The translations under genes and the position numbers were made by a program. From positions 8,228 to 72,227 of IMG/VR virus record IMGVR_UViG_3300028601_000031: a stretch of 64,000 bases of DNA; one strand, written 5' to 3'. Positions 11,538 through 60,530 of this stretch are shown piece after piece (positions within the stretch are counted from its first letter, which is position 1; each line of letters opens with the position of its first letter). The notes under the pieces are model-generated. The model was not told the DNA's origin, searched no databases, and saw only the letters and a list, made by a program, of their open reading frames with translations. This stretch comes from a virus. Its lineage: Duplodnaviria; Caudoviricetes.

Positions 11538-12425
11538 TTAATAAAGTTTATTGTTAATAATATAATTTAAAACATCTCTATTCATATATTTTAATAATTC
11601 ATCATAATTACTACCATCGTTATAAAAAATTTTTAATTTATCTCTTATAAGTGTTGATGATACTTCTATAATTTTATTTTCATCTTTTAGATAAATATGA
11701 GGATAATTTAAATACCAATTTACAAATTCGTCTCTTTTTATACCTGTTCTTGGAATAACAACAAATTGAATTAATCTTTCTAATTCTTCATAATTAACCC
11801 ATTTATCAAAAGTATTTGCATTATCCATTCCTATAATTAATGAAAAATTATGTTTTTCTGTTAATTCTTTTTCTTCTTTTAATCTTTTAACAAAATTATA
11901 AGTGGCACCTGATAATTGATTATCAATTTCATAAGGAAATACTTTGATTCTATCATCTACTTTAGATGCAATTTCACACATATTTAATCTGTGTTCAGAT
12001 GATACCATTTCTTTATTGTACATATGTTTAAACGCAGGCATTAACCATACTTCATCAAATTCTCTTGATGTGTTTAAAACAAATTGTGCAGTTTGTATAT
12101 GTCCTTGGGTAATAGGGTTAAACGCCCCGCCAAATATAGCAACTTTTAATTTTCTACCAAGTGATTTATATTGTAATGATCTAGAATTTATTTTTTCTAT
12201 ATTATTTTGTATCAATTCATCTATTGTCCATCCACTTTCATTACATAATTGAATTAATGATGATAATAAGTCACCTGTTTCTTCTTTCAAATTGTGAATA
12301 TCTGACCATTTCATTAACTCAAAAAATTCTTTTTGAATATCATTTAATCTTTCGGTTAAAGGTGTATATCCAAAATTTTGTTTATATGTATTATTAATTA
12401 ATTTTTGTAATTTATTGGTTTCCAT
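11538..12425 (-). CDS. nadD: MazG-like NTP pyrophosphatase fused to nicotinate-nucleotide adenylyltransferase
   Basis: N-terminal KEFFEL...LKEETGDLL...NIEKINSR (MazG-like); C-terminal AIFGGAFNPITQGH, IIGMDN, VSSTLIR (NadD). Confidence 0.88.
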   Translation of the reverse strand: METNKLQKLINNTYKQNFGYTPLTERLNDIQKEFFELMKWSDIHNLKEETGDLLSSLIQLCNESGWTIDELIQNNIEKINSRSLQYKSLGRKLKVAIFGGAFNPITQGHIQTAQFVLNTSREFDEVWLMPAFKHMYNKEMVSSEHRLNMCEIASKVDDRIKVFPYEIDNQLSGATYNFVKRLKEEKELTEKHNFSLIIGMDNANTFDKWVNYEELERLIQFVVIPRTGIKRDEFVNWYLNYPHIYLKDENKIIEVSSTLIRDKLKIFYNDGSNYDELLKYMNRDVLNYIINNKLY

Positions 12426-12813
12426 ATAATATTTTTTGAATTTTATTTTTTCTGTCTCTCATTTTAATATAGTCATTTATATCCATTTTACTCTGATTGT
12501 ATAATCGTTTATCATATTCTATTTTATTAAGTAAATTAGATATTTTTTCATTTATACTATCTAAATCATCTTCAAATTCAGTAACATTTATAATATTATT
12601 ATTAATATTAAATAATGTAAGTTTGTTATTTATTATTGATCTGAATACATGTATACACATTATATAAAAATCATGCATATTATTTTCTTCATTTTCAACT
12701 TTAAAATTAAATGCAATTTGATCTATATTATCATCAATAATACATCTATATACTTTTACTAAAAAATCGTTTTCTATTTTTTGAATCATATTATTTAGTT
12801 TTACATAACCCAA
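12412..12813 (-). CDS. Hypothetical protein with C-terminal RxxKIxxI tag
   Basis: Ends ...RKNKIQKILYGNQ. Confidence 0.65.
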   Translation of the reverse strand: MGYVKLNNMIQKIENDFLVKVYRCIIDDNIDQIAFNFKVENEENNMHDFYIMCIHVFRSIINNKLTLFNINNNIINVTEFEDDLDSINEKISNLLNKIEYDKRLYNQSKMDINDYIKMRDRKNKIQKILYGNQ

Positions 12814-13196
12814 AATTCACCATTAACAATAATTTTTTTATTATATAATGGTTCTTTGAATTTATTTAATTCATTTTGTTTTAATCCCCAATCTTGTAAA
12901 CAGTAAAATAATTGTTTAAGATATGTATATCTATATTCATCATTGTAAAAATTACAAGATAAAATATGATTATTTTTTAATTTATCCAAACTAGGTATTC
13001 TGAAAATATTAGTATTAGTTATTTTACCATTTCCTTGTGAATATATTACAAACCCATTATGAATATGTAAGTCAAATGGATTATTTATTTTTCCACTATA
13101 AGATAGATATCTTTTATCCCAATGAATTATAGTTATTTCTAATCCATATTCTTGATTACCAGTTAATTTTATTTTTAGTACAAATTTATTATTCAT
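12801..13196 (-). CDS. Hypothetical protein, paralog of 13209..13610
   Basis: Shared F.I.S..FR.P..R...LK.L...LQ.W...FW pattern. Confidence 0.7.
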   Translation of the reverse strand: MNNKFVLKIKLTGNQEYGLEITIIHWDKRYLSYSGKINNPFDLHIHNGFVIYSQGNGKITNTNIFRIPSLDKLKNNHILSCNFYNDEYRYTYLKQLFYCLQDWGLKQNELNKFKEPLYNKKIIVNGEFWVM

Positions 13197-13208
13197 ATTT
13201 AATAAATT

Positions 13209-13610
13209 TTATTTAATAAACCAATAATTATCAACAAATTCAACATTATTGTTATTAATGTCTGAGTAATTATTAATAAATATTTTTTTATCACATGACC
13301 ATGTTTGTAAAGAATCATATAATTTTTTTAATCCGATTTTTCTTTTTTCGTCAGTAATATAATCATGTGTATGTATTATTTTCATATTATTATTCATATA
13401 ACCAGGAAATCTAAAATAATTCTCACAAAATACAAAATACATACTTGACCATATACAAAAATTATTTTTCTTATTCCTATGTACAACAATATTATAGACA
13501 TCATCATTAGTCAATAATAAAGTATCGTCTAAATATAATATTTCTATTGATACTTTATTATCGCCTATCAAATTTACTTCTAAACAAGCTTTATATGTTT
13601 TTTTATTCAT
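13209..13610 (-). CDS. Hypothetical protein, paralog of 12801..13196
   Basis: Same pattern; preceded by a TAATTTTG promoter at 13615-13622. Confidence 0.7.
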   Translation of the reverse strand: MNKKTYKACLEVNLIGDNKVSIEILYLDDTLLLTNDDVYNIVVHRNKKNNFCIWSSMYFVFCENYFRFPGYMNNNMKIIHTHDYITDEKRKIGLKKLYDSLQTWSCDKKIFINNYSDINNNNVEFVDNYWFIK

Positions 13611-13698
13611 AATACAAAATTAAATAAAATAAATTAATTAACAAAATTATTATTAGAATTATTAAAAATTAATATATATTATAAAAAATATAATTATT

Positions 13699-14451: not shown

Positions 14452-14763
14452 TCATTCATTAATTAATTGATTTCTTTTATCTAAATTTTCTAATTTATCT
14501 ACATATTTTTTTAGAATATCACCATGACATGATAATGGATAACACCAACATCCTAATGTTTTATATTTTAATTCATGTAAAGAATTCATTAATTCTTTGT
14601 TATTTAACAAATATTCTTCATATTTTTGAATCGATTCTTGTCTTGTATCAACTTTAAATTCTGCTATTGTATCATTTTTATGTGAATATGGATTTCCCCA
14701 TTTAGAAGGTCTACCTATATAAATATCAAATTTTTCTTTTTTACAATGTACTACTTTACACAT
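14452..14763 (-). CDS. DUF4326-family protein
   Basis: VVHCKKEKFDIYIGRPSKWGNPY...LGCWCYPLSCHGDIL. Confidence 0.8.
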   Translation of the reverse strand: MCKVVHCKKEKFDIYIGRPSKWGNPYSHKNDTIAEFKVDTRQESIQKYEEYLLNNKELMNSLHELKYKTLGCWCYPLSCHGDILKKYVDKLENLDKRNQLINE

Positions 14764-15164
14764 TATATACCATCTTTTATTTTTTTAATTTTTTTAAATC
14801 TTAACTTCAATTTATTAACATATATTTTAGTTAAATTAAAAAATTCATCATCAGTTAACAAACCCTTTTTATTCTTATTGGATAAAATAAAATTTGTTAT
14901 TATATCAATATTTTTATCATTTTCAATATCTTTGACATTAACATGTAACATTATATCACCAGTATTTACAATAATACTACTTAATTTTGTTTTATTAAAT
15001 ATATCTAGATATGATTCATAATAAGAATCACCCTCATTAAAATAACAACCACCAATATCATTTTCTCTGAATTTAACTGGTTTACCAGACATTACCCAAT
15101 TAGCAAAAAATTCATATATAGACTCTTTTTGTTCTTGTGTTAATCTATTTGAATAATCTTTCAT
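14763..15164 (-). CDS. Hypothetical protein with C-terminal RxxKIxxI tag
   Basis: Ends ...LRFKKIKKIKDGI. Confidence 0.65.
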   Translation of the reverse strand: MKDYSNRLTQEQKESIYEFFANWVMSGKPVKFRENDIGGCYFNEGDSYYESYLDIFNKTKLSSIIVNTGDIMLHVNVKDIENDKNIDIITNFILSNKNKKGLLTDDEFFNLTKIYVNKLKLRFKKIKKIKDGI

Positions 15165-15165: not shown

Positions 15166-15393
15166 TTATTTATTTTTTAATAGTTTGATTATTTTATATT
15201 TTCTTTCAAAAATTTTAAATTTTTCATCTATACATACAGTATCAGATAATTTTGGGTAATCTTTGTAAAAATTATAATATTTTTTTAGAATATCAATATC
15301 AATATCAGTCATAATAGATATGCAGTTAAGTATATTTATACTGCCATCTTTTTTAATTGATTTTGATATTTTATCATTATACATTGATATCAT
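15166..15393 (-). CDS. Small protein with C-terminal RxxKIxxL tag
   Basis: Ends ...ERKYKIIKLLKNK. Confidence 0.6.
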   Translation of the reverse strand: MISMYNDKISKSIKKDGSINILNCISIMTDIDIDILKKYYNFYKDYPKLSDTVCIDEKFKIFERKYKIIKLLKNK

Positions 15394-15587
15394 TTTATTA
15401 TATTATTTAATTTTTCTTTTCTTAGTAATAATTTAATTCTATTTTCATCTCTTTTAATATAATTATAATGATGTAAATAAATACATGGATATTTACCGTA
15501 TATTTTTTTATATTTATCAATAATTAAATCATCTACATTATAAATTGATGAAATGATATCATAATGTAATTTTTTTGTAATACTCAT
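15390..15587 (-). CDS. Small protein with C-terminal RxxKLxxI tag
   Basis: Ends ...LRKEKLNNIIK. Confidence 0.6.
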   Translation of the reverse strand: MSITKKLHYDIISSIYNVDDLIIDKYKKIYGKYPCIYLHHYNYIKRDENRIKLLLRKEKLNNIIK

Positions 15588-18661: not shown

Positions 18662-21121
18662 TTATTTGTCATTCATATTTGTTATAGTATCACCTGATAT
18701 TGGTATTAACATTTTAGTTATATTAACTATCTCTAATTTATCTTCTGTTTGAGATTTCGCAATAATTATCTTATCTCCATTTACAACTTCTTTTGTTATA
18801 ATCTTTATAGATACTTCATCTTGTATATATTTTTGTATTGCTCTTTTTAATGGTCTTGCTCCCATATCTTCATCCCATCCTTTTTCAAATATAAAATCTT
18901 TAGCAGTTTCATCCAATTCAATATCGATATTATTATCAATTAATCTATTTCTAAAATTATCTAGTTCAATATCAATAATACTTTTAATATTATCTTTACT
19001 AAGACTATCGAAATGAACAACTTCATCAATTCTATTTAAGAATTCGGGTGAGAATTTTTTCTTTAATTCTTTTTCAACAATTGATTTACTCATAACTTGT
19101 TTATCACTATTAAATCCAATTCCAGCTCCTCTTAGTTTTGCTTCTTTTGAACCAATATTTGAAGTCATAATAATAACAGTATTTTTAAAATCAACAGTTC
19201 TTCCCTGACTATCTGTTAATATACCATCATCAAATACTTGTAATAGTACATTCCATACATCATTGTGTGCTTTTTCGATTTCATCTAGAAGGATAATAGA
19301 ATATGGCTTATTTTTAACTGCATCTGTCAATTGTCCACCATCTTCGTGACCAACGTATCCAGGAGGTGCTCCAATTAATCTAGATACAGAGTGTTTCTCC
19401 ATATATTCTGACATATCTATTCTAATATAATCTCTTTCACTATTAAATAATTGTTCAGCCAATTTTTTAACCATATGTGTTTTTCCTGTACCAGTAGGAC
19501 CTAGTAATAAAAATGTACCAATTGGTCTTTTTCCATCATTTAATCCAGCCTTGTTTCTTAATATAGCCATTGATATTTTATCAACTGCGTCGTCTTGTCC
19601 AATTATCTTTTTCTTCAATTCAAATGGTAAATTTACAAGTTTAGATGTATCATCATCTGTTATATTTTTAGATGGTATATTTGTCATTATAGAAATAACT
19701 TCATATACATCTTCTTTTCTAACCTTTTTTCTTTTTGATAATCTTTTATTTTTAAGATCATTTTTCATTATTTCAAGTTCAGATTCTATTGATCTTTGTT
19801 GTTTTAACAATTCTGCCGCTGATAAAAAATCTTGTTCTGATACTTTTTTTAATTTTTGTTTAGTTATTTCATCTAATTCATTTTCCTTATTGATTATATC
19901 AACAGGTGTTTCAATATTAATCCTAACAGATGCACCAGCTTCATCCATAACATCAATCGCTTTATCAGGAAATTGTCTATCAGATATATATCTATCAGAT
20001 AATTTTAAACATGCTATTATGGATTCATCTGTATATTCCACCATGTGGTGATTTTCATATCTATCTTTAAGATTTTTAAGAATTTCATATGTTTCATTAT
20101 ATGTTGGTTCATTTACTCTAATTTTTTGGAACCTTCTTTCTAATGCACCATCTTTTTCGATCTTTTTATATTCTTCATTTGTAGTAGAACCAATGCAACT
20201 AATTTCACCCCTTGATAATGCTGGTTTTAAAATATTTGCAGCATCTAATGATCCTGTTGATCCGCCCGCTCCAACTATTGTATGAATTTCATCAATATAG
20301 ATAATAATATCTGAGTTTTGTTTTAATTCATCGACAATTTTTTTCATTCTTTCTTCAAATTCTCCTCTGTATTTAGTACCAGCTACAACAGAACCCATTT
20401 CTAGTGATAATATTCTCTTATTATGTAAAATATCAGGTGTTTCTTTATTGATGATAGCTTGTGCTAAACCATCAACAATAGCAGTTTTCCCAACACCTGC
20501 ACTACCAATAAGAATAGGGTTATTTTTTTTCCTTCTAGAAAGGACTTGTGCAATTCTTTTAATTTCTTTTTCTCTACCGATGACAGGATCTAACTTATTT
20601 TGTTTTGCTAAATCTGTTAAATCTGTACTAAATTCATCTAGAATTGGTGTTTTTGTTTTTTTATAAGGTACATTAGTTCCAGTTGGATTATCATCTTTTT
20701 CCATATTAGAATTTTTATTAAATACTTTATTATAAATATTTTCAGCATCGGTATATGTAACATTTGGTATAACTTTAGCTCTTATAATAGATAATACAAG
20801 ATGCTCTGTTCTTACGATACTTGAATTAAACTTTTTTGCTTCTAATTGGGATTGCATCATTATATTTTGTGCTTCGGTACTTAATGATGCTAAATCGTCA
20901 TCTTTTTTTTCAATTGTATCAACAGATATTGGATCACTATTTAAAAATGTTTTCATTTTTTTCTTAGCATTATCAATATCAATAATATTTGATAGTATTT
21001 TATAACCATTACAATCATTTGTACTTATTATTCCAAATAATAAATGAGGAGGTTCAATTAAACCATTAGAGTACTCCTTTGCTTTCTTAATTACTTTTTT
21101 AAAATTTTCTGAATATTCCAT
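18662..21121 (-). CDS. clpC: ATP-dependent Clp protease ATP-binding subunit (ClpC type)
   Basis: Clp N-domain, GSAGVGKT and GPTGTGKT Walker A motifs, GTKYRGEFE pore loop, UVR-like middle domain, IGF loop (GAGIGF). Confidence 0.93.
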   Translation of the reverse strand: MEYSENFKKVIKKAKEYSNGLIEPPHLLFGIISTNDCNGYKILSNIIDIDNAKKKMKTFLNSDPISVDTIEKKDDDLASLSTEAQNIMMQSQLEAKKFNSSIVRTEHLVLSIIRAKVIPNVTYTDAENIYNKVFNKNSNMEKDDNPTGTNVPYKKTKTPILDEFSTDLTDLAKQNKLDPVIGREKEIKRIAQVLSRRKKNNPILIGSAGVGKTAIVDGLAQAIINKETPDILHNKRILSLEMGSVVAGTKYRGEFEERMKKIVDELKQNSDIIIYIDEIHTIVGAGGSTGSLDAANILKPALSRGEISCIGSTTNEEYKKIEKDGALERRFQKIRVNEPTYNETYEILKNLKDRYENHHMVEYTDESIIACLKLSDRYISDRQFPDKAIDVMDEAGASVRINIETPVDIINKENELDEITKQKLKKVSEQDFLSAAELLKQQRSIESELEIMKNDLKNKRLSKRKKVRKEDVYEVISIMTNIPSKNITDDDTSKLVNLPFELKKKIIGQDDAVDKISMAILRNKAGLNDGKRPIGTFLLLGPTGTGKTHMVKKLAEQLFNSERDYIRIDMSEYMEKHSVSRLIGAPPGYVGHEDGGQLTDAVKNKPYSIILLDEIEKAHNDVWNVLLQVFDDGILTDSQGRTVDFKNTVIIMTSNIGSKEAKLRGAGIGFNSDKQVMSKSIVEKELKKKFSPEFLNRIDEVVHFDSLSKDNIKSIIDIELDNFRNRLIDNNIDIELDETAKDFIFEKGWDEDMGARPLKRAIQKYIQDEVSIKIITKEVVNGDKIIIAKSQTEDKLEIVNITKMLIPISGDTITNMNDK

Positions 21122-21634: not shown

Positions 21635-22066
21635 CTATAGTTTTTGAATTAAAATTCCATCTTTATCAAACATTATCAAATCAAATCCTAATACTTTTAT
21701 ATTCTTATCTTTATAAAATTCTGATAGTGAACCAACATTTTTTCTAACTTCTGAAAAATTATGAGATCTTTCTGACATAATTTTAATTTGTTCATCGGTT
21801 GGTTCACTTTCAAAAAATATAATAAAATTATCAGAATTTGAATTATCCAACGCAACTGGTCTATAACATCCATGATCATCAGGTAAATCTTTAATATTAC
21901 TAAATAAATTTGATATATTCATGTCAACAAATTCATCACCTACTCCACATTCTCCTAATTGACCAGTCATATATGCACACATTTCTCTCTCAAAATTACC
22001 TGCATAAGAATCAGTTTTAACTTTAAATCCCCAATAAATTTCTTTCATATTATTAATCAATTTCAA
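21635..22066 (-). CDS. Hypothetical phage protein
   Basis: TDSYAGNFEREMCAYMTG..GECGVG; operon ORF. Confidence 0.7.
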   Translation of the reverse strand: MKLINNMKEIYWGFKVKTDSYAGNFEREMCAYMTGQLGECGVGDEFVDMNISNLFSNIKDLPDDHGCYRPVALDNSNSDNFIIFFESEPTDEQIKIMSERSHNFSEVRKNVGSLSEFYKDKNIKVLGFDLIMFDKDGILIQKL

Positions 22067-22400
22067 CGGTTGCTTCTAAATTTCTACTATTTAATCCTTT
22101 TTTTAATTTCATCATTTCATCAAATGATCCAGTTTTAACAACTGATTTACCCTTGTTGTGTGCTTCCATTGTTACTCTAATACATTCTTCACTTGATAAT
22201 TTACAAATATCATATAACGCTAACATTACATCCATAATATCATTGACATGATCATTCCATAGTATTAGTCTATAAACATCAGATTTCGAATTTTTAATAC
22301 CTAATTCACTTAATAAATCGGTTATGCTATCAGTATCAGATGATACACTACTTTGTATATCATTTAACATTTGCTCATATTTGTCTCTACTATACATCAT
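22053..22400 (-). CDS. clpS: Clp protease adaptor ClpS
   Basis: YRLILWNDHVN....V...L......ME.HNKGKSVV...GL..RNL.AT. Confidence 0.85.
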   Translation of the reverse strand: MMYSRDKYEQMLNDIQSSVSSDTDSITDLLSELGIKNSKSDVYRLILWNDHVNDIMDVMLALYDICKLSSEECIRVTMEAHNKGKSVVKTGSFDEMMKLKKGLNSRNLEATVEID

Positions 22401-24559: not shown

Positions 24560-24955
24560 TTAAAAGTTATAATTATTTAATTTTATTTCTTTTAAAATCA
24601 ATAAATTACAATTTTTATTTTTAATTTTATTTATTTTTAATTTTCTTATATATAAATCATCATATATTGGTACCAATCTATTATCATCCCATCTCATATT
24701 ACCATCTAAATATATTTTTATTTTATTCGCTAATATTCCTATAAGACCTATTTTATCATGATTAAATGATAATTTACTATGTGATGGTATATTATCCATT
24801 AAATTTGATATTATATTACCATTAGTTTTAATTTTCGTAAAATTGTAAATATTAGAAAATTTTATAATATCCATAATAATTTGTCTATTTATAGTTGATA
24901 TATTATGTAATAATGATATGGTATCATTAATATCTATATTAATATCTTCTATCAT
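24560..24955 (-). CDS. Small protein resembling a degenerate major-capsid-protein fragment, with RxxKIxxI tag
   Basis: IKTNGNIISNLMD...IGILANKIKIYLDGNMRWDDNRL, then IRKLKINKI. Confidence 0.5.
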   Translation of the reverse strand: MIEDINIDINDTISLLHNISTINRQIIMDIIKFSNIYNFTKIKTNGNIISNLMDNIPSHSKLSFNHDKIGLIGILANKIKIYLDGNMRWDDNRLVPIYDDLYIRKLKINKIKNKNCNLLILKEIKLNNYNF

Positions 24956-30466: not shown

Positions 30467-30832
30467 ATGAAACATATTAAAACATATAATGAATCAATAA
30501 GACATCTTTTAAAGGGTAAAAATAAGGATGAAATGAAAAACATAGTTTATAGTTTACCAGACTATAAAAAATATGTTTATATAGAAAAACATGATTTATA
30601 TGATTTATTTACTGAAAAAGAATTAGAAGAGTTTGAATCTAAATCACCTGAAATAAGTGAAATGGGAAAGTGGTTTGATTTCCAAGTTGAAGATACACAA
30701 TACCATATTCTTATTCAGGATAATGATATAGATACAATTATTATATTAGATGAAAATCTTAAAGAAATAGAAGATTATGATACATTTGAATACATAAATG
30801 AAATGGAAGATTACTTAAAACCTTATTTATAA
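30467..30832 (+). CDS. Hypothetical protein with MKHIKTYNES leader
   Basis: Shares the NESI..LLK.K leader with three downstream genes. Confidence 0.7.
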   Translation: MKHIKTYNESIRHLLKGKNKDEMKNIVYSLPDYKKYVYIEKHDLYDLFTEKELEEFESKSPEISEMGKWFDFQVEDTQYHILIQDNDIDTIIILDENLKEIEDYDTFEYINEMEDYLKPYL

Positions 30833-30848
30833 AAAAAATAAAAAGTTT

Positions 30849-31496: not shown

Positions 31497-31499
31497 TTT

Positions 31500-33938: not shown

Positions 33939-33977
33939 AAAATATATTGTATATTTGTACCATAAAAATCTAACATT

Positions 33978-42612: not shown

Positions 42613-43023
42613 TTAATTATTATACTTTTTCATAAAGTCAACAACAGATGAATATATTGACTTAATTAATGATTCGTCAATACTATATGATATAACATTT
42701 TTATCAAAAGAATATTCACCTATTTCAGAAAAAGTTGTTACATATAATACTTTATCATCGAAGACATTTTTAATACTAAATCTATAATTAAAACCATTTA
42801 GTGATTTTAATTTAGATATTTTTTTAACAACTGGCATTATCCAATCAAATGATTTAGAAAATTTTAATTCATCATCATTATCAGATAATCCACTTATAAT
42901 TAATTCTTCATGATCAATATCTGTTCTACCATTTTTTTTGGGTATCCAACAATTTTCATCTACACTAAACTCAAGATTCATAAATTTAGCAATTATAATA
43001 TCACCAATTAAATTTTTATTCAT
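42613..43023 (-). CDS. Hypothetical phage protein
   Basis: IIAKFM...LKFSKSFDWIMPVVKKI pattern. Confidence 0.7.
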   Translation of the reverse strand: MNKNLIGDIIIAKFMNLEFSVDENCWIPKKNGRTDIDHEELIISGLSDNDDELKFSKSFDWIMPVVKKISKLKSLNGFNYRFSIKNVFDDKVLYVTTFSEIGEYSFDKNVISYSIDESLIKSIYSSVVDFMKKYNN

Positions 43024-44008
43024 CGAAATTTGTATTTAAATAATTTAGCCAAAAAATTCTAGCTTTTGCAGATATAGCTTTTCCAATTTTTTTAATATTA
43101 ATATTATTTTTCTCTATTGTATCTGATTCTTCCTTAATAACATCATTATAAACCCACTTCAAGTAATCTGCAGTAGATTTATCAATAATTGGAATATTTA
43201 ATTCTCTCATTTTATCAATACCTTGTGTCAATCTATTTTCAGTGACAGCATAATCGACAAAAGACTTAATATTTTCAATTTCCTCAATATCAACAGTAGT
43301 TAAAGTTTTTACTTTACTTACTTGGTGTTTTTCTCCTTTAACTTTAAAAATATATCTTTTATTATCATTAATATGTTCCCACACAATCCCTTCTCCTGTT
43401 CCTGATACATCAAAATATTTTCCAATAGGGCATTCTTTTTCTACATTATTAGTTAATTCAGATAATATATTTATTGATAATTCAGGTCGATTAAAATTAA
43501 TATCTATTTCAAAATTAGGAAATTGTAATATATTAAAAATTAATTGATCTTCGTTTTTTATATGTGCAAAATTAGACATATCTTTATAAAGACCATCTAT
43601 TTTTATAGCAAAAATAACAAACATTTTAGGTAATTGGGATATTGCCACTTTTTTCTGAATACCCTTACCACACCATTCACCATAAATAGCACAATATTCA
43701 TTAAACTGAATATTATCAAATAATTTTTGATAATCTTTTTTAATCATTTCATTCATGAAATTATAATTATCTTCAGTTAATGATAATTCAGATTCTCTGG
43801 ATTGAAATTTATATGTACCATCAGCATATTTAACAATAGATGAGTTAGAACCATGTAATTTTACAGTTCCTCTAAATTTCATTGTAGGGTATGGTGTAGT
43901 ATGATTAAAAATAGCTTTACCATCATCATTCTTACCTGCATAATCATGACTATCTTTAACCTGTCTAATGACATTTCTAAATTGTTCTATTTCGGTAAAT
44001 TTTTTCAT
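43016..44008 (-). CDS. ATP-dependent RNA ligase (Rnl2-like); probable start MKKFTEIEQFR
   Basis: Motif I VKLHGSN, QSR, IYGEWCG.GIQK, GEGIVW, FKVKGEKH. Confidence 0.8.
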   Translation of the reverse strand: MKKFTEIEQFRNVIRQVKDSHDYAGKNDDGKAIFNHTTPYPTMKFRGTVKLHGSNSSIVKYADGTYKFQSRESELSLTEDNYNFMNEMIKKDYQKLFDNIQFNEYCAIYGEWCGKGIQKKVAISQLPKMFVIFAIKIDGLYKDMSNFAHIKNEDQLIFNILQFPNFEIDINFNRPELSINILSELTNNVEKECPIGKYFDVSGTGEGIVWEHINDNKRYIFKVKGEKHQVSKVKTLTTVDIEEIENIKSFVDYAVTENRLTQGIDKMRELNIPIIDKSTADYLKWVYNDVIKEESDTIEKNNINIKKIGKAISAKARIFWLNYLNTNFDE

Positions 44009-44009
44009 T

Positions 44010-44339
44010 TTAATCTTTTTGGTATTTAGATATTTGTGTAATTTCATTATGGGTGAAACCAGATCTTTCTAAAGCTTCAGCAAAAGGAATCCATACATTT
44101 TCTTTTTGTGGTTCACCAGAACAATAACCATAATAATCTCTAGTTCCCCACCTATCTACAACAGCTTTAGTTCGTGCTACTAGTTTATTTTTATCTTTAA
44201 TAAGTTTAGCCATTCTAGATGCGCATGATTGAAAAGGAGCACCATTACCATAAAATGTACGTCCGTTAAACTGAAGACTATCTGCTCTTTCGTAATCTTT
44301 TTTAGTTGGGATAATTTTATCAATATCTATTCCATTCAT
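44010..44339 (-). CDS. Hypothetical protein
   Basis: First gene after the promoter at 44355-44386. Confidence 0.65.
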   Translation of the reverse strand: MNGIDIDKIIPTKKDYERADSLQFNGRTFYGNGAPFQSCASRMAKLIKDKNKLVARTKAVVDRWGTRDYYGYCSGEPQKENVWIPFAEALERSGFTHNEITQISKYQKD

Positions 44340-45861: not shown

Positions 45862-46050
45862 TTAATAACAATATGAATCGTCATTTTCACCAGAAGGATA
45901 ATATAAACTTTTACCTAAACTATTTATTTCATCTCTTTCTTTTTCCAATTCACGTCTATTGCTTTCAATGATTCTCCTATTAACTTTAGATTCCCATCTT
46001 TTTGATTTTGCTTTATTAATATTTTTTCTTACTTCATTTCTCCAACTCAT
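45862..46050 (-). CDS. Small basic protein
   Basis: Operon ORF. Confidence 0.55.
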   Translation of the reverse strand: MSWRNEVRKNINKAKSKRWESKVNRRIIESNRRELEKERDEINSLGKSLYYPSGENDDSYCY

Positions 46051-46477
46051 AATTAATTATTTTTAATATTTTATCTTTTCTTTTATATTTTTCTAAAAAT
46101 TTCATAGTATTATCATACATATTAATTTTACTATTTAATCTTTTTTGTTGTCTTAATAATTCTTTTATTGTATTATTTTTTGTTTCAAATAACTTATCAT
46201 AAAATCTATTTATCAATTCTATTTCTTTTTTCTTTAAATATTCTTCATTGTTTATTTTTCTTGTTATAAATGTAGAGTATGTTAAATCTGTTTTATTATA
46301 ACTATAATTATTATCAAAATAAAATTTATCCCAACTTTCACCATCACGAAAACCAACTCTAAAATATTCTCTTGTTAATATAATTTTATCACTGTATAAA
46401 TTCAATGAAATTCTATATGATATAGGTTCATCTTTAAAACTATCTAAGTCTGATTTTTCTTTTATAATTAATTCCAT
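46034..46477 (-). CDS. Hypothetical protein with RxxKIxxI tag
   Basis: Ends KRKDKILKIINYELEK. Confidence 0.65.
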   Translation of the reverse strand: MELIIKEKSDLDSFKDEPISYRISLNLYSDKIILTREYFRVGFRDGESWDKFYFDNNYSYNKTDLTYSTFITRKINNEEYLKKKEIELINRFYDKLFETKNNTIKELLRQQKRLNSKINMYDNTMKFLEKYKRKDKILKIINYELEK

Positions 46478-46781
46478 TTGAAAGTTTTTTAATTTTTGAT
46501 TGTCTTAATACCATATTAAAAAAATCTATAGATATTTTACCTGAAAAAAATTCTTGAAAATTATAATGTTCCCATAAGTTACCCTCAATTATTTTAAATT
46601 CATCATTTACAATTTTTGCAAATTGTGGCATATTTAAATCAAATTTATCAAGATGTTGTGTCATCTTTTCATTAGACGATGTTGAAAATGTGTTATATTT
46701 AACATATTCTTCATCACATTTTAATAGAAAATTAAGTATTAAACATGCACCTATTTGAATATCTTCATCATTTAATTTCAT
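46440..46781 (-). CDS. Hypothetical protein with RxxKIxxL tag
   Basis: LRQSKIKKL near the C-terminus. Confidence 0.65.
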   Translation of the reverse strand: MKLNDEDIQIGACLILNFLLKCDEEYVKYNTFSTSSNEKMTQHLDKFDLNMPQFAKIVNDEFKIIEGNLWEHYNFQEFFSGKISIDFFNMVLRQSKIKKLSNGINYKRKIRLR

Positions 46782-47115: not shown

Positions 47116-48554
47116 ATGAACTACACATTAGCTAAAGACTAATGTGTTTCAGGAATATACCTTCTCTTTAATCGTTTCATTGCTTATGCCATTTAATTCC
47201 GAGAAATTATTTGGTCTTATTTTTGCTCCGCGATCGTTATCAGATGTTCCGTCTGATATATTTAATCTTAATCCTTCTTTTAATATATTTATGGCTGCAT
47301 TAATATCTCTATCTAGTTTAGCACCACATTTATTACATATCCATTTTCTTTGATGAAGTTTTAAGTTTTGATTTATATGACTACATTTATTGCAAGTTTT
47401 AGATGAAGGGAAAAATCTATCTACTTTAATTAATTGTTTATCGTTCCAATCACATTTATAACTTAAAATATCGATGAATCTACCCCAGCTAACGTCAGAA
47501 ATTGATTTAGATAGTTTTCTATTTTTAATCATTCCTTTGATATTTAAATCTTCAATGTAAATAGTATCAAATTCATTAATTAGTTTAAATGTTATTTTAT
47601 GTAACATATCTGATCTAGAATTTGAAATCTTTTCATGGATTCTACAAACTTTTAATCTTTGTTTTTCGTATCTTTTTGATCCCCTTGTTTTTCTTGATAA
47701 ATGTTTTTGATTTAAACTTAATTTTCTTTCATATTTCTTTAAATATCTGATGCCCTTGGTTTTCGAACCATTAGATAGAGATATGAAGTCATTTAAACCT
47801 AAATCCATACCAATATTTTTATTGGTTTTTTTAACTGGTTGATATTCTTTTTCGACTAAAATTGAAACATAATATTTACCAGTTGAGGTCTTTGATATAG
47901 AACATTTTTTAATTAAACCTTCTATATTCCTGTGTTTAACCATTTTAATCCCACCTTTAAACTTTGGTATAATTAAATAGTTATCTTCTACCTTTACACT
48001 CTGTGGTACAGTAAAGGTATTTTTTGTTTTTCTACTTTTAAATCTAGGAAATCCACTTCTTTTTTTAAAAAATGATTGGTATGCTATATCCAAACAATTT
48101 AAACTATATTGTAAGGTCTGTGAATTAATTTCTTTTAACCACTGATAATCAGGATCTTTTTTAAGTTTAGTTAAAAAAGAAGATTGTTGGTTATAAGTTA
48201 TAGATTTTTTATTATTAACGTATTCTTCTTTTCTTTGGTTTAAAAAATGGTTGTATACAAATCTGACACATCCAAAATACCTATTTAAAATATATTGTTG
48301 TTCTTTATCAGGGTTTAACCTGAATTTATATGTATATATTATATTTTTCATCTTTATAGTAATTAATTCCTTTACTATAAATATATATTAAATGAAAAAT
48401 ATCACTTTTTTCCATTTTTACAATTTAAATATCTAACAGATTGATTATTAGTTATTTAAATTTTAAAAATATTTTTAAAAAATTAAATTCAATTGAAATT
48501 TATTGAAATTCATCCCTCTAACTAAAGATTAGATGGTTTTCTTTCAAGGTGAAT
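47116..48554 (-). mobile_element. Non-autonomous IS200/IS605-family (IS1341-like, tnpB-only) element
   Basis: Subterminal hairpins sharing a ctaaaga loop (47123-47147 and about 48515-48536), right end ...TTCAT, TTTAT target motif 5' of the left end, no target-site duplication. Confidence 0.8.
47149..48351 (-). CDS. tnpB: RNA-guided endonuclease TnpB
   Basis: N-terminal YKFRL.P...FGCVRFVYN; RuvC IGMDLG / IEDL / DRDINAA; zinc finger CNKC..CNKC. Confidence 0.95.
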   Translation of the reverse strand: MKNIIYTYKFRLNPDKEQQYILNRYFGCVRFVYNHFLNQRKEEYVNNKKSITYNQQSSFLTKLKKDPDYQWLKEINSQTLQYSLNCLDIAYQSFFKKRSGFPRFKSRKTKNTFTVPQSVKVEDNYLIIPKFKGGIKMVKHRNIEGLIKKCSISKTSTGKYYVSILVEKEYQPVKKTNKNIGMDLGLNDFISLSNGSKTKGIRYLKKYERKLSLNQKHLSRKTRGSKRYEKQRLKVCRIHEKISNSRSDMLHKITFKLINEFDTIYIEDLNIKGMIKNRKLSKSISDVSWGRFIDILSYKCDWNDKQLIKVDRFFPSSKTCNKCSHINQNLKLHQRKWICNKCGAKLDRDINAAINILKEGLRLNISDGTSDNDRGAKIRPNNFSELNGISNETIKEKVYS

Positions 48555-51623: not shown

Positions 51624-52016
51624 TTATCTTAACATTTTTGGTAAATTATATTTTTCAACTAAATCATATAAATCCCCATATGATACATATATAAATAAAA
51701 AATAATCTACTGTATCCATTAATCTACATCCAATTTCTCCATATTTCCAGCTCTCTTTATATCCACCTTGGGTAAATCTATCAATGACAACATTATGAGT
51801 ATTTAAAGATAATTTTTGTTCAATGAATTCTTCTGCTGTAAATTTATCAGTTCTCTTTCTTTGTATACTAGTTAATTCATCAACATGATGATCATATGAC
51901 AATGACAATGCGTCTCTATATAATTGTTTAAGTGTTTTTTCATCTTTAATAACACCAACATCAAAAAACCCATTCCAATATGATGTTTGTTCATTAAAAT
52001 TATTAATATTTTTCAT
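51624..52016 (-). CDS. Hypothetical protein with MKNINNFNE leader
   Basis: Operon ORF with leader motif. Confidence 0.65.
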   Translation of the reverse strand: MKNINNFNEQTSYWNGFFDVGVIKDEKTLKQLYRDALSLSYDHHVDELTSIQRKRTDKFTAEEFIEQKLSLNTHNVVIDRFTQGGYKESWKYGEIGCRLMDTVDYFLFIYVSYGDLYDLVEKYNLPKMLR

Positions 52017-52255
52017 TTTTTCTTAAATTTAGATTTTGTTTTTAATTCCTTTATTTTTTCATCTCTATCTCTATTTTTAAAATATTCTTTTTCATCAATA
52101 AATAATCGACAAATTTTTTTATCATTAACAATTTCATCATAATATGGACTATTTGGATGTTCACATTTCATACATTGATCACCAAACCACTTATTTAATA
52201 ATAAAGTAGATTCTGTATAATTAGAATATAAACAATCCAAACATGACTTTTCCAT
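52013..52255 (-). CDS. Small Cys-rich protein with RxxKIxxL tag
   Basis: CLDC..CMKC..C; DRDEKIKEL. Confidence 0.65.
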   Translation of the reverse strand: MEKSCLDCLYSNYTESTLLLNKWFGDQCMKCEHPNSPYYDEIVNDKKICRLFIDEKEYFKNRDRDEKIKELKTKSKFKKK

Positions 52256-55261: not shown

Positions 55262-56209
55262 TTACAAAGATCCAAATAATTCTTGACTAATTGATTTCCC
55301 GTTACTAACTCTTTTAATAGCCTTAGCTAACATTTCATCAATTGATAATACTTTTATTTTATTACTTAATCCATGTTTAATTGGAATAGAATCAGTAACA
55401 ATTAATTCTGTTAATTTAGAATTATTAATATTATTATAAGCGTTACCTGATAGTATAGGATGACAAATAAGAGCCCTTACTGATTTTGCACCAGATTCCA
55501 TCAAAAGATCAGCAGCTCTTGAAATAGAACCACCGGAATCGATTATATCATCAATTAAAAAGACATCTTTATCTTGGACATCTCCAATAAGTTTCATAGT
55601 AGAAATAACACCAGGTTTTGATCTTTCTTTATGAATAACCACTAAATCTGTTTGTAATACATTAGAATAACGACTTGCTCTTTTTGTTCCACCTACATCT
55701 GGCGTTGCAATAACCATATTATCAGTATCGAAGTTTTCTTTAATATATGGTATGAATACATAACTAGAACTTAAATGATCAACGGGTATATCAAAAAATC
55801 CTTGAATTTGGTCACAGTGCAAATCGAGTGTAATAATTCTATTAGCACCTGATGTAGTTAATAAATCCGCCATTAATTTTGCTGAAATTGGAACTCTTGG
55901 TTTATCTTTTCTATCTTGTCTAGCATAACCAAAATATGGAATAACTGCTGCTATTCTCTTAGCAGATGCTCTTTTTGCAGCATCTAACATTAAAAATAAT
56001 TCCATCATACTATCATTAGAATTGGTTGATTGTATAATGAAAACATTGTCTTTTCTAATTGATTGATTATAATGAACTAATATTTCACCATCAGTAAATT
56101 TTTTAAGTTCAATATCATTCAAAATTGCTTCCTTATTATTAAAATAGGACTCAACTACCTTTTTAGATAGTTGTGGAATTGATGTACCTGAAAAGATTTT
56201 TATTGCCAT
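55262..56209 (-). CDS. prs: Ribose-phosphate pyrophosphokinase
   Basis: FTDGE, PYFGYARQDRK, DLHCDQIQGFF, PDVGG, DDIIDSGGS. Confidence 0.95.
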   Translation of the reverse strand: MAIKIFSGTSIPQLSKKVVESYFNNKEAILNDIELKKFTDGEILVHYNQSIRKDNVFIIQSTNSNDSMMELFLMLDAAKRASAKRIAAVIPYFGYARQDRKDKPRVPISAKLMADLLTTSGANRIITLDLHCDQIQGFFDIPVDHLSSSYVFIPYIKENFDTDNMVIATPDVGGTKRASRYSNVLQTDLVVIHKERSKPGVISTMKLIGDVQDKDVFLIDDIIDSGGSISRAADLLMESGAKSVRALICHPILSGNAYNNINNSKLTELIVTDSIPIKHGLSNKIKVLSIDEMLAKAIKRVSNGKSISQELFGSL

Positions 56210-57959: not shown

Positions 57960-58003
57960 TTCTTAAAATTTTAGAGTACAAATATACAATAAATTATTTT
58001 AAA

Positions 58004-58564
58004 TTACAAATTTTTATGTTTAATATTTGTTATGCTAATGTATTTAGCAGGTACAAAATCAGTTAACCAAACTTTATTTTCAGATAAATAAAATTTATAA
58101 CCATCTTCGTACATTTTCTTTGATTCTATTCTTAGAATTACTGGTTTTAAAGTCTTTGCATGTCTTTGACCAACATGAAATGCTGTCAATTTATTGTCAG
58201 ATAAATGAACAAATTTTCTTGACATTTTATACAATCCATTTTGCATAATACTATCAATAACTGTTGGTGTTGTACCATGAAATAAAAACATTGGAGGTTC
58301 TAATTCTGCAAATTTAATAGTAACAAAATCAATTGAATGTCCCTGATTTGCTCTTATTTTCAATTCACCATCAAAATACTTATATGAGTATCTTTGTTTA
58401 TCATCCTTAAATACAAGCATATCCAATGTATCTTTATCTGTTTTGATTAAAGATAATAATTCTTTAATACTAACCCAACCGTCTTGATCCATTTTCATTC
58501 CTCTTGGATCATGTCGAAGCAAGTAAGCTAGCTTCTTTGATATTTTCATTAAATCCTTTTCCAT
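58004..58564 (-). CDS. kptA: RNA 2'-phosphotransferase (Tpt1/KptA)
   Basis: SKKLAYLLRH, DDKQRY, IRANQGHS, LFHGT, MSRKFVHLS, VWLTDFVP. Confidence 0.93.
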   Translation of the reverse strand: MEKDLMKISKKLAYLLRHDPRGMKMDQDGWVSIKELLSLIKTDKDTLDMLVFKDDKQRYSYKYFDGELKIRANQGHSIDFVTIKFAELEPPMFLFHGTTPTVIDSIMQNGLYKMSRKFVHLSDNKLTAFHVGQRHAKTLKPVILRIESKKMYEDGYKFYLSENKVWLTDFVPAKYISITNIKHKNL

Positions 58565-58973
58565 ATATTAATTTTTTAATTTTATGTATTCTTAACACAT
58601 CTTTAAATTCCATTTTTAGTATTCCATTACCGTCATATCTTGATATTGTTAAGTCTTTTATTTTATGAATATTCTTAAAAATATTATTTAAAAAATAATT
58701 ATACTCTTCGATTGTTTCTATTGCTTGTAATTCATATTTATCTAAATTATATGACATTCTATAACAAGCATATGGTTCCATAATTTCTTCAACTTTCCAG
58801 TCATCTTCTGTTAAATCTTTAATTAACTTATCTCTATTTATAATATAAATTGATTTAGAATACCCGCAACTATTACAAAAAGTAAATTCTTCACCTGTTT
58901 TATAATTAAAATCAGATATACAATCACCTGTCTGACATCTTGGACACTCAATATAATCAATTATAGTTCCCAT
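58509..58973 (-). CDS. Zinc-ribbon protein with RxxKIxxL tag
   Basis: CPRC..CNSCGY; LRIHKIKKL. Confidence 0.7.
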   Translation of the reverse strand: MGTIIDYIECPRCQTGDCISDFNYKTGEEFTFCNSCGYSKSIYIINRDKLIKDLTEDDWKVEEIMEPYACYRMSYNLDKYELQAIETIEEYNYFLNNIFKNIHKIKDLTISRYDGNGILKMEFKDVLRIHKIKKLIYGKGFNENIKEASLLAST

Positions 58974-59443
58974 ACATTCTTAATTTTATTAATTTTTAAA
59001 AATCTTTCTTCCTTTCTTATATCATCTAAACTAAAATGATTATTATTTGGTATACTGCAATACCTAATTTTTTCAATTGTAAAGATACCTTTTTTTACTA
59101 TAATAATCAAATCTGATTCATAAAATGTTGATGCAATAGTTCCTATATCTGTTATGTTTATAAAGTTTTTTAATTTTCTGATATCTATAACAGATTCAAA
59201 TCTTTTAATGCTACTATAAGGATTAGAAATTCTAAAATTATCTCTTATAAGTATAACATTATCATTATTTGACAATTCAATAATTTCTTTTATTGTATAT
59301 TTATCATAATAATCATTATTAAACTCCATAACATTATTAAAATACTTAGATATAATTGATGCTAATAAATTACAATTACGTCTATCAAATGTAGTTCTAT
59401 ATAAAAATGTAATTCTATTATGTTTTATTATTTTTTCTAACAT
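58961..59443 (-). CDS. Hypothetical protein (possible degenerate DnaB-like C-terminal fragment) with RxxKIxxI tag
   Basis: ESDLIIIV...TIEKIRY; ERFLKINKI. Confidence 0.55.
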   Translation of the reverse strand: MLEKIIKHNRITFLYRTTFDRRNCNLLASIISKYFNNVMEFNNDYYDKYTIKEIIELSNNDNVILIRDNFRISNPYSSIKRFESVIDIRKLKNFINITDIGTIASTFYESDLIIIVKKGIFTIEKIRYCSIPNNNHFSLDDIRKEERFLKINKIKNVWEL

Positions 59444-59745
59444 ATATAAGATAAATGATCAATAATTATAATATCTGGTTTTATATTTAATTTCATCACT
59501 ATATTTGGGTATAATGATGAAAAATCATAATTAGACTTAAATTTAGTAAATAATCTAAACCCAATTAAATGTTTATCACATTTATTTAAAAGTTTATAAA
59601 GTTTTAATTTCCTTATAAATATAAATAATTCATTTCTATTAGAAGTATCAACAATATGATCAATATTTATATCATTCATATGGGTTTTAATATCGCCATT
59701 AATTATAAAATAATGATTACCAATATATTCTATATTAAATATCAT
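59437..59745 (-). CDS. Small chimeric protein: RxxKLxxL tag, PolB motif A-like and Walker-B-like peptides
   Basis: IRKLKLYKL...YDFSSLYPNIVMKLNI-KPDIIIIDHL. Confidence 0.6.
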   Translation of the reverse strand: MIFNIEYIGNHYFIINGDIKTHMNDINIDHIVDTSNRNELFIFIRKLKLYKLLNKCDKHLIGFRLFTKFKSNYDFSSLYPNIVMKLNIKPDIIIIDHLSYIC

Positions 59746-59939
59746 TTAGATAAGATTTTATGTAAATTATTACAACCAATTTTAATTAAATAAAAAGATA
59801 ATATAGATACACTAATAAAAGTTATAAAATTAATAATTGGTTTAAATGGAACAGTATGTAAATATAACAAAGAAAATAGCATAATAATTGAAAAAATTAT
59901 TAGTACTATGTTAGTAAATATTAATATAAATCTTTTCAT
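59742..59939 (-). CDS. Small two-TM membrane protein
   Basis: Hydrophobic ORF. Confidence 0.6.
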   Translation of the reverse strand: MKRFILIFTNIVLIIFSIIMLFSLLYLHTVPFKPIINFITFISVSILSFYLIKIGCNNLHKILSK

Positions 59940-60331
59940 TTTTGTATTTTTTTAATTATTCTATTAAGTTTATTAAGTCTTTTAAATTTTAAATATTTTG
60001 GATCTTCGTACAATTCGTACCAATATTGGCCATCTCCGAACCTTAATATATTTTCTATATGTACTTTAATTTCATCTATAACAAGATCAATTAATTGAAA
60101 ATTATCCATAAATGTATAACACCATATAGAGTAATCATCTTCTTTTATATTCCAATCCTCATAATATTCGTAATAAGGTTCTTTTCCTTGTTTTATTAAT
60201 TCTTCATCTATTTTTTTACCAATTTCTATATGATTATAAATCATTTGTTTTTGTTCATCGGTTATTTTATGTAAAGGAATAATGAAGCTACTTGAACTAC
60301 TATTACTAACAAATCCTTTTCTTATTTTCAT
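59936..60331 (-). CDS. RxGFVSNSSSS-leader protein with RxxKLxxI tag
   Basis: MKIRKGFVSNSSSSSFII; KRLNKLNRII. Confidence 0.75.
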   Translation of the reverse strand: MKIRKGFVSNSSSSSFIIPLHKITDEQKQMIYNHIEIGKKIDEELIKQGKEPYYEYYEDWNIKEDDYSIWCYTFMDNFQLIDLVIDEIKVHIENILRFGDGQYWYELYEDPKYLKFKRLNKLNRIIKKIQK

Positions 60332-60530
60332 ATAATTTTTTAATTTTTAATATTCTATATTCTGTTAATAAAATAAATCTATTTGATAAAATACCTCCAT
60401 TATTAAGTAATTCTTTTATTAGTACTGCTTGATTATTAATTACATATTCAATTGTGTATTTTTCTCCTAATTTTAATGATGTACGTGGTGATGTACTAAT
60501 ACAAACCACAACATCCCCCTTTTTAAACAT
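60306..60530 (-). CDS. Small SH3-like protein with RxxKIxxL tag
   Basis: FKKGDVVVCI...LKLGEKYTI...RF; YRILKIKKL. Confidence 0.65.
   Translation of the reverse strand: MFKKGDVVVCISTSPRTSLKLGEKYTIEYVINNQAVLIKELLNNGGILSNRFILLTEYRILKIKKLYENKKRIC

Follow-up and report, generated by a model that had tools for sequence, protein, structure and literature searches.

A 64-kb stretch of viral DNA (hereinafter the window; positions 8,228 to 72,227 of the IMG/VR record IMGVR_UViG_3300028601_000031) codes for a series of unrelated small proteins that carry, at or near their C-termini, the shared motif R-x-x-K-[IL]-x-x-[IL]. We find that this motif is a tag selected in the protein and not in the DNA, that it constitutes a separable C-terminal module, and that it is limited to one clade of huge phages, where it is present on 6–13% of the open reading frames (ORFs). 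Taking all candidate receptors together, the tag is rather likely to be a docking or sorting signal for one receptor; among the candidates we tentatively favor the proteostasis machinery of the phage itself (the ClpC-like unfoldase and the Hsp70-DnaJ-GrpE system), to which we assign a probability of about 0.35.

A C-terminal motif in excess of chance

The motif was first defined post hoc on the window, in an earlier note that listed 15 sites. We scored it in the last 30 residues of ORFs, using crude ORF sets (greedy longest ORFs; in the related genomes, ATG starts only and a minimum of 50 aa). Each of the 15 listed sites is present: 14 end 2–20 residues before the C-terminus, and one lies internally, 50 residues from the end of 59437..59745. 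Additional sites were recovered in 9841..10041 (RRFKLNEI), in 34171..34590, where RMSKLEEI is a further copy, and in the part of the record beyond the window (RSSKIRKI). The tagged ORFs, in window coordinates unless otherwise indicated, are:

9841..10041, minus strand: tagged ORF, 66 aa; RRFKLNEI at 9874-9897, 10 aa before the end; not in the first list
12412..12813, minus strand: tagged ORF, 133 aa; RKNKIQKI at 12430-12453, 5 aa before the end; no Pfam or PHROG family
14763..15164, minus strand: tagged ORF, 133 aa; RFKKIKKI at 14778-14801, 4 aa before the end; no Pfam or PHROG family
15166..15393, minus strand: tagged ORF, 75 aa; RKYKIIKL at 15181-15204, 4 aa before the end; no Pfam family
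15390..15587, minus strand: tagged ORF, 65 aa; RKEKLNNI at 15399-15422, 2 aa before the end; no Pfam family
24560..24955, minus strand: tagged ORF, 131 aa; RKLKINKI at 24623-24646, 20 aa before the end
34171..34590, minus strand: tagged ORF, 139 aa, with two copies; RKEKIEKL at 34204-34227 and RMSKLEEI at 34174-34197 (the very end)
37376..37789, minus strand: tagged ORF, 137 aa; RILKLNKI at 37394-37417; phrog_2164 body, residues 16-117
46034..46477, minus strand: tagged ORF, 147 aa; RKDKILKI at 46058-46081
46440..46781, minus strand: tagged ORF, 113 aa; RQSKIKKL at 46482-46505, 13 aa before the end
52013..52255, minus strand: tagged ORF, 80 aa; RDEKIKEL at 52043-52066
58509..58973, minus strand: tagged ORF, 154 aa; RIHKIKKL at 58569-58592, 19 aa before the end
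58961..59443, minus strand: tagged ORF, 160 aa; RFLKINKI at 58982-59005
59437..59745, minus strand: doubtful member, 102 aa; internal RKLKLYKL at 59590-59613, followed by a partial likeness to family B DNA polymerases
59936..60331, minus strand: tagged ORF, 131 aa; RLNKLNRI at 59957-59980
60306..60530, minus strand: tagged ORF, 74 aa; RILKIKKL at 60333-60356
538..1353 of the whole record, outside the window: tagged ORF, 271 aa; RSSKIRKI near the end

The clusters of tagged genes that had been described at 12.4–15.6 kb and 58.5–60.5 kb are as claimed. The gene following 34171..34590 lies on the opposite strand, and this ORF resembles a Pfam family (DUF7305) only below the cut-off.

Across the whole 72,227-nt record (hereinafter G000), 16 of the 122 ORFs, about one in eight, carry the motif in their tails, and 17 of its 19 in-frame matches fall within the last 30 residues. 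The earlier note had proposed a count against shuffled proteomes, and this confirms the C-terminal excess: 2000 shuffles gave means of 0.39 (whole-protein) and 0.71 (tail-only) and a maximum of 5, versus the 17 observed. The 136 unchosen ORFs of 40 aa or more that the same DNA contains are all without a tail copy of the motif. A hidden Markov model trained on 196 tails from five genomes, none of them G000, recovered 11 G000 matches at 6 bits or more, versus 0.45 matches per shuffled proteome. The post hoc definition of the motif is offset by the recurrence of its excess in independent genomes and by three AT-rich genomes that show none. Chance or K/I-rich composition as its source is rejected on the shuffles, the spurious ORFs and these AT-rich negative genomes; the observation holds and exceeds its first description.

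Distribution in a clade of huge phages

G000 is rated 18% complete and represents about that fraction of a roughly 400-kb phage. The nearest records, retrieved by way of its DnaJ-like gene, are G001 (80 kb), G002 (176 kb) and G003 (385 kb, 95% complete); blastp searches showed 20 of the 122 G000 proteins, including the ClpC-like protein, to be shared with G003. The latter codes for a head and packaging set comprising a Terminase_6N match, a gp23-like capsid protein, a protease fused to a repeat-rich acidic scaffold, and a portal. Its capsid protein is 72% identical to that of LR745206.1 (634,780 nt), 70% to that of LR756502.1, 53% to that of LR756501.1 (735,411 nt), 51% to that of LR756504.1 (636,363 nt), 34% to that of LR756500.1, and 26% to that of Tenacibaculum phage PTm1. 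Genomes of 634, 636, 642 and 735 kb are the largest described in the paper on huge-phage clades, where they constitute the 'Mahaphage' clade, whose replication is predicted to take place in Bacteroidetes (PMC7162821). We infer that the phage of the window is akin to these 634–735-kb genomes, and the hosts of the tagged clade are probably Bacteroidota. Contigs from giant-virus bins among the relatives of the DnaJ-like gene had suggested a eukaryotic giant virus; this is rejected for the present clade because a terminase and a gp23-type head module are present, and the more distant giant-virus-bin loci are without tags. The NCLDV capsid family had no match in the viral records, but it matched nowhere, controls included.

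When tail matches are given with the number of ORFs and the expectation from tail shuffles, the tag is in excess in G000 (17/122/0.69), G001 (7/112/0.37), G002 (27/243/1.1), G003 (32/458/1.9), LR745206.1 (114/924/4.4) and LR756504.1 (55/919/4.3), and shows no excess in LR756501.1 (3/1009/2.7), LR756500.1 (2/666/2.4, in 460 of its 462 kb) and PTm1 (1/301/0.85). In total, 249 of 2,778 ORFs are tagged in the six tagged genomes, versus 6 of 1,976 in the three others, which are of similar GC content. With a single tail match in PTm1, the cultured relative, virion data from that phage are uninformative with regard to the tag. LR756504.1 additionally has many variant tails of the type R-K-x-I-I-x-D-L-L, in which K4 is replaced; a relaxed pattern recovers 25 of the 141 ORFs in its first 50 kb. 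Further variants of the tag within the clade are of the types R-D-x-K and R-x-x-K-L-N-K-[IL].

A different tail, D-P-Y-G-E-E-x-W, ends 43 of the 1,009 ORFs of LR756501.1, on proteins of 55–843 aa, and the same pattern is found a further 65 times inside proteins of that genome. In LR756500.1 about 13 ORFs end in a tail of the N-A-D-D-F-G-F type; because most of its carriers are 250–280 aa long, this is probably one paralog family and not a tag on unrelated bodies. A full-text literature search found no published account of the R-x-x-K tag, and the main text of PMC7162821, supplements excluded, does not contain the word 'C-terminal'. The segment 12300..15700 of the window is matched, either near-identically or as variants, by contigs of 20 public DNA runs; these belong to 13 studies, labeled as landfill, fermentation, groundwater and other metagenomes. 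Seven runs contain half or more of its words, and one run may be the source; contigs of four DNA runs cover the segment only in fragments, and no RNA run is among the matches listed.

Selection on the protein

The least tenable explanation is that the motif is a shadow of K/I-rich composition or of a nucleic-acid signal, such as a promoter, the initiation region of the next gene or a recombination site. Although G000 has a GC content of 21–26%, with K, I and N as its commonest residues, and its genes are so tightly packed that their ends overlap the start region of the next gene, we regard this as very improbable in light of several lines of evidence. First, the DNA-equivalent pattern in the last 90 nt of G000 ORFs occurs 17 times in frame 0, never in frame 1 and twice in frame 2, and across G000–G003 there are 83 occurrences in frame 0 versus 10 in frames 1 and 2 together. 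Second, the codons for the R, K and I/L positions are mixed and track genome-wide usage (in G000–G003 AGA, AGG or CGA, AAA or AAG, and six codons at the two hydrophobic positions). Third, since frame-locking would also be expected of a signal fixed to an overlapping downstream start, we compared distances: that from the tag to its own stop codon is sharp (6 nt in 30 of 70 same-strand cases and 9 nt in 11), whereas that to the next ATG is spread out. Moreover, 13 tags on 11 genes precede a gene on the opposite strand, i.e., they lie at convergent ends; the same spurious ORFs, AT-rich relatives and shuffle maximum that argue against chance also apply here. Because the motif is specific to the coding frame, varied in codons, spaced relative to its own stop and present at convergent ends, we conclude that it is selected in the protein. 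A nascent peptide linked to termination or bypass is an unlikely source of the motif, because the tag-to-stop distance spans 2–18 residues within families.

Shape of the tag

The clade consensus is K-x-x-h-R-[DENK]-x-K-[IL]-x-x-[IL]-[LFI]-x-COOH, in which R1, K4, [IL]5 and [IL]8 are fixed by the search pattern itself. Among 83 tails, K is the commonest residue at position -4 (34/83), I or L is frequent at position -1, and 63 tails have L, F or I at position 9. Two residues follow the motif in 36 of the 83 tags and 0–20 in the rest; the first two positions behind it vary (L/F/I/G, then N/K/D/I). In G002, G003 and LR745206.1 the tag usually ends 2–3 residues before the stop and has mostly D, E or N at position 2, while over the tagged genomes 205 of 258 C-terminal sites end 0–5 residues before the C-terminus. 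The subclade of the window has additional I/L at positions 11–12. Over the 83 tails there is neither a flexible Gly/Pro/Ser linker before the tag nor a consistent Glu-containing cleavage context (E at -2 in 17/83).

When placed by hand at 100 degrees per residue, K-4, R1, K4, h5, h8 and h9 fall within about 120 degrees, with the variable positions opposite; the tag is probably a helix of two to three turns, and by this geometry its one-sided R1/K4/h5/h8/h9 face looks more like a surface for protein docking than like a membrane or nucleic-acid helix. The basic amphipathic helix envisaged in the earlier note describes the tags of this very AT-rich genome but does not extend to the relatives, where positions 2, 6 and 7 are mostly D, E, N or Q. 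The basic look of the window's tags therefore reflects the composition of the window, since the relatives have D, E or N at position 2, and a membrane- or nucleic-acid-binding helix is unlikely because the tag of the relatives lacks net basic charge. A profile search of the PDB with 28 tails gave a best E-value of 1.5, a phmmer search of the PDB with the 37376 protein returned no matches, and an atlas search with one tail yielded no usable match.

A separable module on unrelated bodies

Nearly all tagged ORFs are small, fast-evolving and without assigned function, i.e., mostly dark matter: only 3 of the 249 reach 250 aa, versus 700 of the 2,529 untagged ones. With the tag removed, the 249 bodies form 207 blast clusters, of which 176 are singletons; the unrelatedness of the bodies asserted for the window holds throughout G000, where no pair among the 16 tagged bodies matches at a blastp E-value below 0.01, and blastp finds no G003 homolog for any tagged protein of G000. 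Among the 81 tagged proteins of G000–G003 we detected five Pfam and eight PHROG families, with one member each, and among the 112 of LR745206.1 three Pfam families. It had further been observed that the recognizable enzymes of the window are untagged, and indeed none of its scanned proteins with an above-cut-off Pfam domain carries the tag. For the body types named in the earlier note (Zn ribbon, SH3-like, capsid-like), there were weak, sub-threshold matches only.

Two families illustrate the modularity of the tag. The earlier note had suggested looking for untagged homologs of 37376, and these do exist: the motif is in the last 35 residues of 43 of 120 homologs (in the last 30 residues of 42), and the remainder end directly after the last helix of the body, without an extension. 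In the 59936 family, 52 of 120 homologs are tagged, comprising 52 of the 61 of at least 120 aa and none of the 59 shorter ones. Positions 2, 3 and 6 and the flanks vary among the tagged homologs of both families, with 2–18 residues following the motif. The tag is thus a separable C-terminal module on unrelated small proteins. With two self-matches excluded, seven of the 249 bodies align at E<0.001 to a portion of a larger protein (300 aa or more), namely to the capsid protein in three cases, to the protease-scaffold in three and to the UVR stretch of ClpC in one. Profile searches support this for Gp23 against a tagged 62-aa ORF of G001 (E=5e-8) and for a prohead-protease PHROG against tagged 61–62-aa ORFs of G003 (E=3e-5).

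The phage proteostasis machinery as candidate receptor

The single common receptor posited in the earlier note fits a short peptide carried as a separable module by many unrelated bodies. The reading to which we give a probability of about 0.35 centers on the following genes of the window:

18662..21121, minus strand: ClpC-like double-AAA+ unfoldase, 819 aa, with an IGF loop at residue 668; candidate receptor
22053..22400, minus strand: ClpS-like protein, 115 aa; genomic context
36153..36815, minus strand: ClpP, 220 aa; genomic context
37779..38843, minus strand: DnaJ-like protein, 354 aa (phrog_14336); candidate partner system

Under this proposal, the huge-phage clade would have attached one C-terminal peptide to 6–13% of its ORFs as a common handle that docks all carriers to one receptor. 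That receptor might be the ClpC-like unfoldase, in partnership with a ClpP of phage or host origin, the phage Hsp70-DnaJ-GrpE system, or both. In that case the tag would either be a degron that gives non-structural proteins a short life, or its carriers would be adaptors, small binders that deliver targets to the machine.

Several genomic associations point in this direction. The ClpC-like protein is found in G000, G002, G003, LR745206.1, LR756504.1 and LR756501.1, with a loop of the ClpP-docking type (IGF in G000, VGF in G003), and Hsp70 in G001 and G002 (both by blastp) and in G003, LR745206.1, LR756504.1 and LR756501.1. Both track C-terminal tagging on a mass scale, being absent from LR756500.1 and PTm1 (Hsp70 in the latter by blastp), the two complete genomes without such a tag. 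The relatives code for a full Hsp70 system, comprising an Hsp70 of about 625 aa and GrpE-like and DnaJ-like proteins (G003 323957..334802), and additionally for ClpS-like and ClpC-like proteins. ClpS (PF02617) is found in G003, LR745206.1 and LR756504.1, and not in LR756501.1 or LR756500.1. In G002, G003 and LR745206.1 there is a conserved gene order of GrpE, a tagged gene of about 180 aa, a gene of about 78–106 aa (with the tag in G002 and LR745206.1, but without a scored one in G003) and the DnaJ-like gene; the last is followed in G002 and LR745206.1 by a tagged 55–83-aa gene resembling the scaffold repeats. In the window, similarly, the tagged 37376..37789 lies directly downstream of the DnaJ-like gene. 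Finally, the seven bodies akin to capsid, protease-scaffold or ClpC pieces are such as baits might be. As few genomes were compared, these links are only suggestive.

A number of observations weigh against a proteostatic receptor. The co-occurrence amounts to six tagged genomes (seven with the D-P-Y-G-E-E-x-W genome) versus two complete untagged ones, and LR756501.1 has both the ClpC-like protein and Hsp70 with the other tag and not this one. Under a strict profile, 23 G003 proteins, most of them ordinary enzymes, are distributed like the tag, with a counterpart in each of the two large tagged genomes and in none of the three untagged ones; ClpS, a GrpE-like protein, two 2H phosphoesterases, an adenylate kinase and several unknowns are among the 23. 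ClpP (PF00574) is absent from G001–G003 and was found only in G000 among the four viral records. The G003 ClpC-like protein lacks the N-domain (it begins at residue ~158 of its G000 counterpart), which is where known adaptors dock, and no separate ORF for such a domain was found (blastp E>=0.057). The last two residues after the motif vary, unlike those of degrons read by the unfoldase pore, and the acidic residues in the tags of the relatives fit poorly with peptides bound by DnaK. Phage ClpP, which the earlier note had listed among its options, is not required, since it is present in only one of four tagged records and absent from the 95%-complete, tagged G003. The exact match between ClpS and the tag in five complete genomes prompted us to consider the ClpS-like protein as the receptor; this is unlikely, as the residues of the G003 version that we take to form the N-degron pocket look intact.

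Of the known systems, adaptors tethered to an unfoldase are the next closest after the capsid-targeting peptides discussed below (PMC9963277). SspB is an adaptor that tethers itself to ClpX (PMC9963277), and in SspB-ClpX/ssrA, as might be the case here with a ClpC-like protein bearing an IGF/VGF loop and a ClpS-like protein, terminal peptides couple unrelated proteins to one unfoldase. As with a Clp degron or adaptor handle, a candidate cognate unfoldase with a ClpP-docking loop is encoded. The tag differs from an ssrA-like degron, which has a conserved extreme C-terminus, in that its end residues vary; unlike with an SspB-type tether, the N-domain is not present wherever the tag is (it is missing from the ClpC-like protein of G003), and ClpP is absent from three of the four records.

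A more elaborate version of the proteostasis proposal, which we consider doubtful, is a programmable adaptor library in which hundreds of small binders share one handle and deliver their bound targets to the phage unfoldase or chaperone. Some binders would have been copied from capsid, scaffold and protease, and the targets might be proteins of host defense or of competitor phages; sister clades would have re-invented the system with other handles, such as D-P-Y-G-E-E-x-W in the 735-kb genome.

Rival receptors

The tag could alternatively dock its carriers to a host hub, such as ClpX or another AAA+ protease, the sliding clamp, RNA polymerase or the ribosome, and serve as a takeover handle or as a degron read by the host. 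Consistent with this, tagged genes are without the upstream motif of the structural genes (see below) and lie in runs of small genes, as host-takeover genes often do; the tag is kept across the phages while the tagged bodies are not; and no phage protein is singled out among the 23 that share its profile. The PIP box, with its consensus Q-x-x-h-x-x-a-a, offers a parallel: it too is C-terminal and a short helix through which many partners dock on one ring, and positions 5, 8 and 9 of the tag reproduce the h-x-x-h-h spacing of its core. The residue three before h5 is, however, D, E, K or N and not Q as in the PIP box, and R1 and K4 have no counterpart there. No T4-type clamp (PF02916) was detected in the four records, though the family was recovered only sub-threshold in one control genome. 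The sister clade has the same predicted host phylum (PMC7162821) and a quite different tag, which counts against this reading. On balance we view a host hub as unlikely, albeit worthy of consideration.

Somewhat less likely in our view is that the tag targets the capsid or binds the scaffold, so that many small proteins would be loaded into the prohead and injected together with the DNA; it would then be a C-terminal counterpart of the capsid-targeting sequence (CTS) of T4. The CTS of T-even phages is N-terminal and is removed by the prohead protease. The present clade does have a T4-type head module (gp23-like capsid protein, protease fused to an acidic repeat scaffold, and portal), and six of the 249 bodies resemble capsid or protease-scaffold pieces, one of these being near the head genes of LR745206.1. 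T-even internal proteins are described as diverse defense proteins with only the CTS in common, so that in both cases a short terminal peptide is the sole shared part of diverse, fast-evolving small proteins of phages with gp23-type heads (PMC3012670). In contrast to the CTS, the tag is C-terminal, has no consistent Glu-containing cleavage context, is on 6–13% of the ORFs instead of a handful, and its genes lack the upstream motif of the head genes. To our knowledge, the 114 cargo species that LR745206.1 would have to package are without precedent in a single phage. Cargo-loading peptides of encapsulins and encapsulation peptides of microcompartments are likewise short, mostly helical, present on unrelated cargo and read by one shell protein, but unlike in these there is no Gly/Pro/Ser linker before the tag; no shell or compartment gene besides the phage capsid protein turned up, and no search was aimed at them.

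The upstream motif that bears on this question is the 8-mer AATATATA, which is present in 82 of 201 G003 upstream regions (versus 3.7 expected), mostly starts 12–13 nt before the ATG, and precedes the capsid, protease, portal and terminase genes of that genome; were it a T4-late-like promoter at that spacing, the mRNAs would be nearly leaderless. Scoring AATATATA together with three related 8-mers within 45 nt upstream, we found such a motif before none of 31 tagged versus 141 of 427 untagged G003 genes (p=9e-6). The difference persists when the comparison is with untagged ORFs below 200 aa (0/31 versus 58/224; p=3e-4) and recurs in G002 (1/27 versus 52/216; p=0.013); it is not significant in G001 (0/7 versus 27/105; p=0.19) or in G000 (1/16 versus 16/106; p=0.47), where 17 of the 122 ORFs have the motif. 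As a caveat, 14 of the 31 tagged G003 genes have the motif further up in the same-strand run. Import into the virion, one of the options raised earlier, is accordingly weakened by the absence of the head-gene motif from tagged genes, though not decisively so.

A still poorer candidate is the absence of any common receptor, with the tag as a generic helical add-on for self-association, stabilization or the linking of tagged proteins to one another. Small binder domains often gain avidity by oligomerizing, and the segment is short, with hydrophobic residues at i, i+3 and i+4 and, in the subclade of the window, extra I/L at positions 11–12. Against this, a profile from the tails of other genomes recovers the same sites; a generic helix does not need one precise spacing on 207 unrelated body clusters; and the core is too short for a coiled coil and sharply present or absent by clade. 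The constancy of R1 and K4 is not in itself evidence here, since both are fixed by the search pattern.

Other genes of the window and its relatives

Among the domain-bearing genes of the window are those for the ClpC-like double AAA+ protein, ClpP, the DnaJ-like protein, NAPRTase, a PRPP-synthetase-like protein, NUDIX, Tpt1/KptA, RNA ligase, TnpB, three HNH-type endonucleases and an ankyrin-repeat protein. Some of these constitute an NAD salvage and RNA repair set (6785..7987, 43016..44047, 55262..56209, 58004..58564 and 61132..61533), comprising NAPRTase, RNA ligase, a ribose-phosphate-pyrophosphokinase-like protein, the Tpt1/KptA 2'-phosphotransferase and NUDIX; over 54 nt, the Tpt1 gene has 92.6% identity to a Clostridioides phage kptA. 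The endonucleases are three paralogous HNH/DUF723-type homing-endonuclease-like genes (1290..2573, 5805..6719 and 34639..36093) that share a single matching gene in G003, at 39–42% identity, and the TnpB/IS605 OrfB-type gene (47149..48351) displays OrfB_IS605, a Cas12f1-like TNB domain and an HTH domain. The 422-aa ankyrin-repeat protein (32670..33938) is encoded in a minority plus-strand block (30467..34190). Between 37376 and ClpP, a 180-aa ORF (36830..37372) with a hydrophobic N-terminus and an H-E-x-x-H stretch possibly codes for a membrane metalloprotease.

Stretches like family B DNA polymerases are sub-threshold in 59437..59745 (Pfam DNA_pol_B, E=0.008) and in the 271-aa tagged ORF outside the window (E=0.0105), and both look like polymerase fragments or decayed paralogs. 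In G003, a family B DNA polymerase ORF of 566 aa (100317..102017) ends soon after a motif-A-like stretch and is followed by a reverse-strand gene; the remainder of the polymerase was not found adjoining it, and the gene is possibly split.

Significance of the tag

Most genes of huge phages are small ORFans that offer no point of entry for study. Through a ten-residue tag on 6–13% of the ORFs of several 0.4–0.64-Mb phages, 249 such proteins fall into one functional class (in LR745206.1 alone, 114 of the 924 ORFs), and the tag predicts a single receptor that would be reachable by peptide bait. With a protease or chaperone as that receptor, the tag would amount to a targeting code supplied by the phage; were it the capsid, the tag would define an unusually large injected arsenal.

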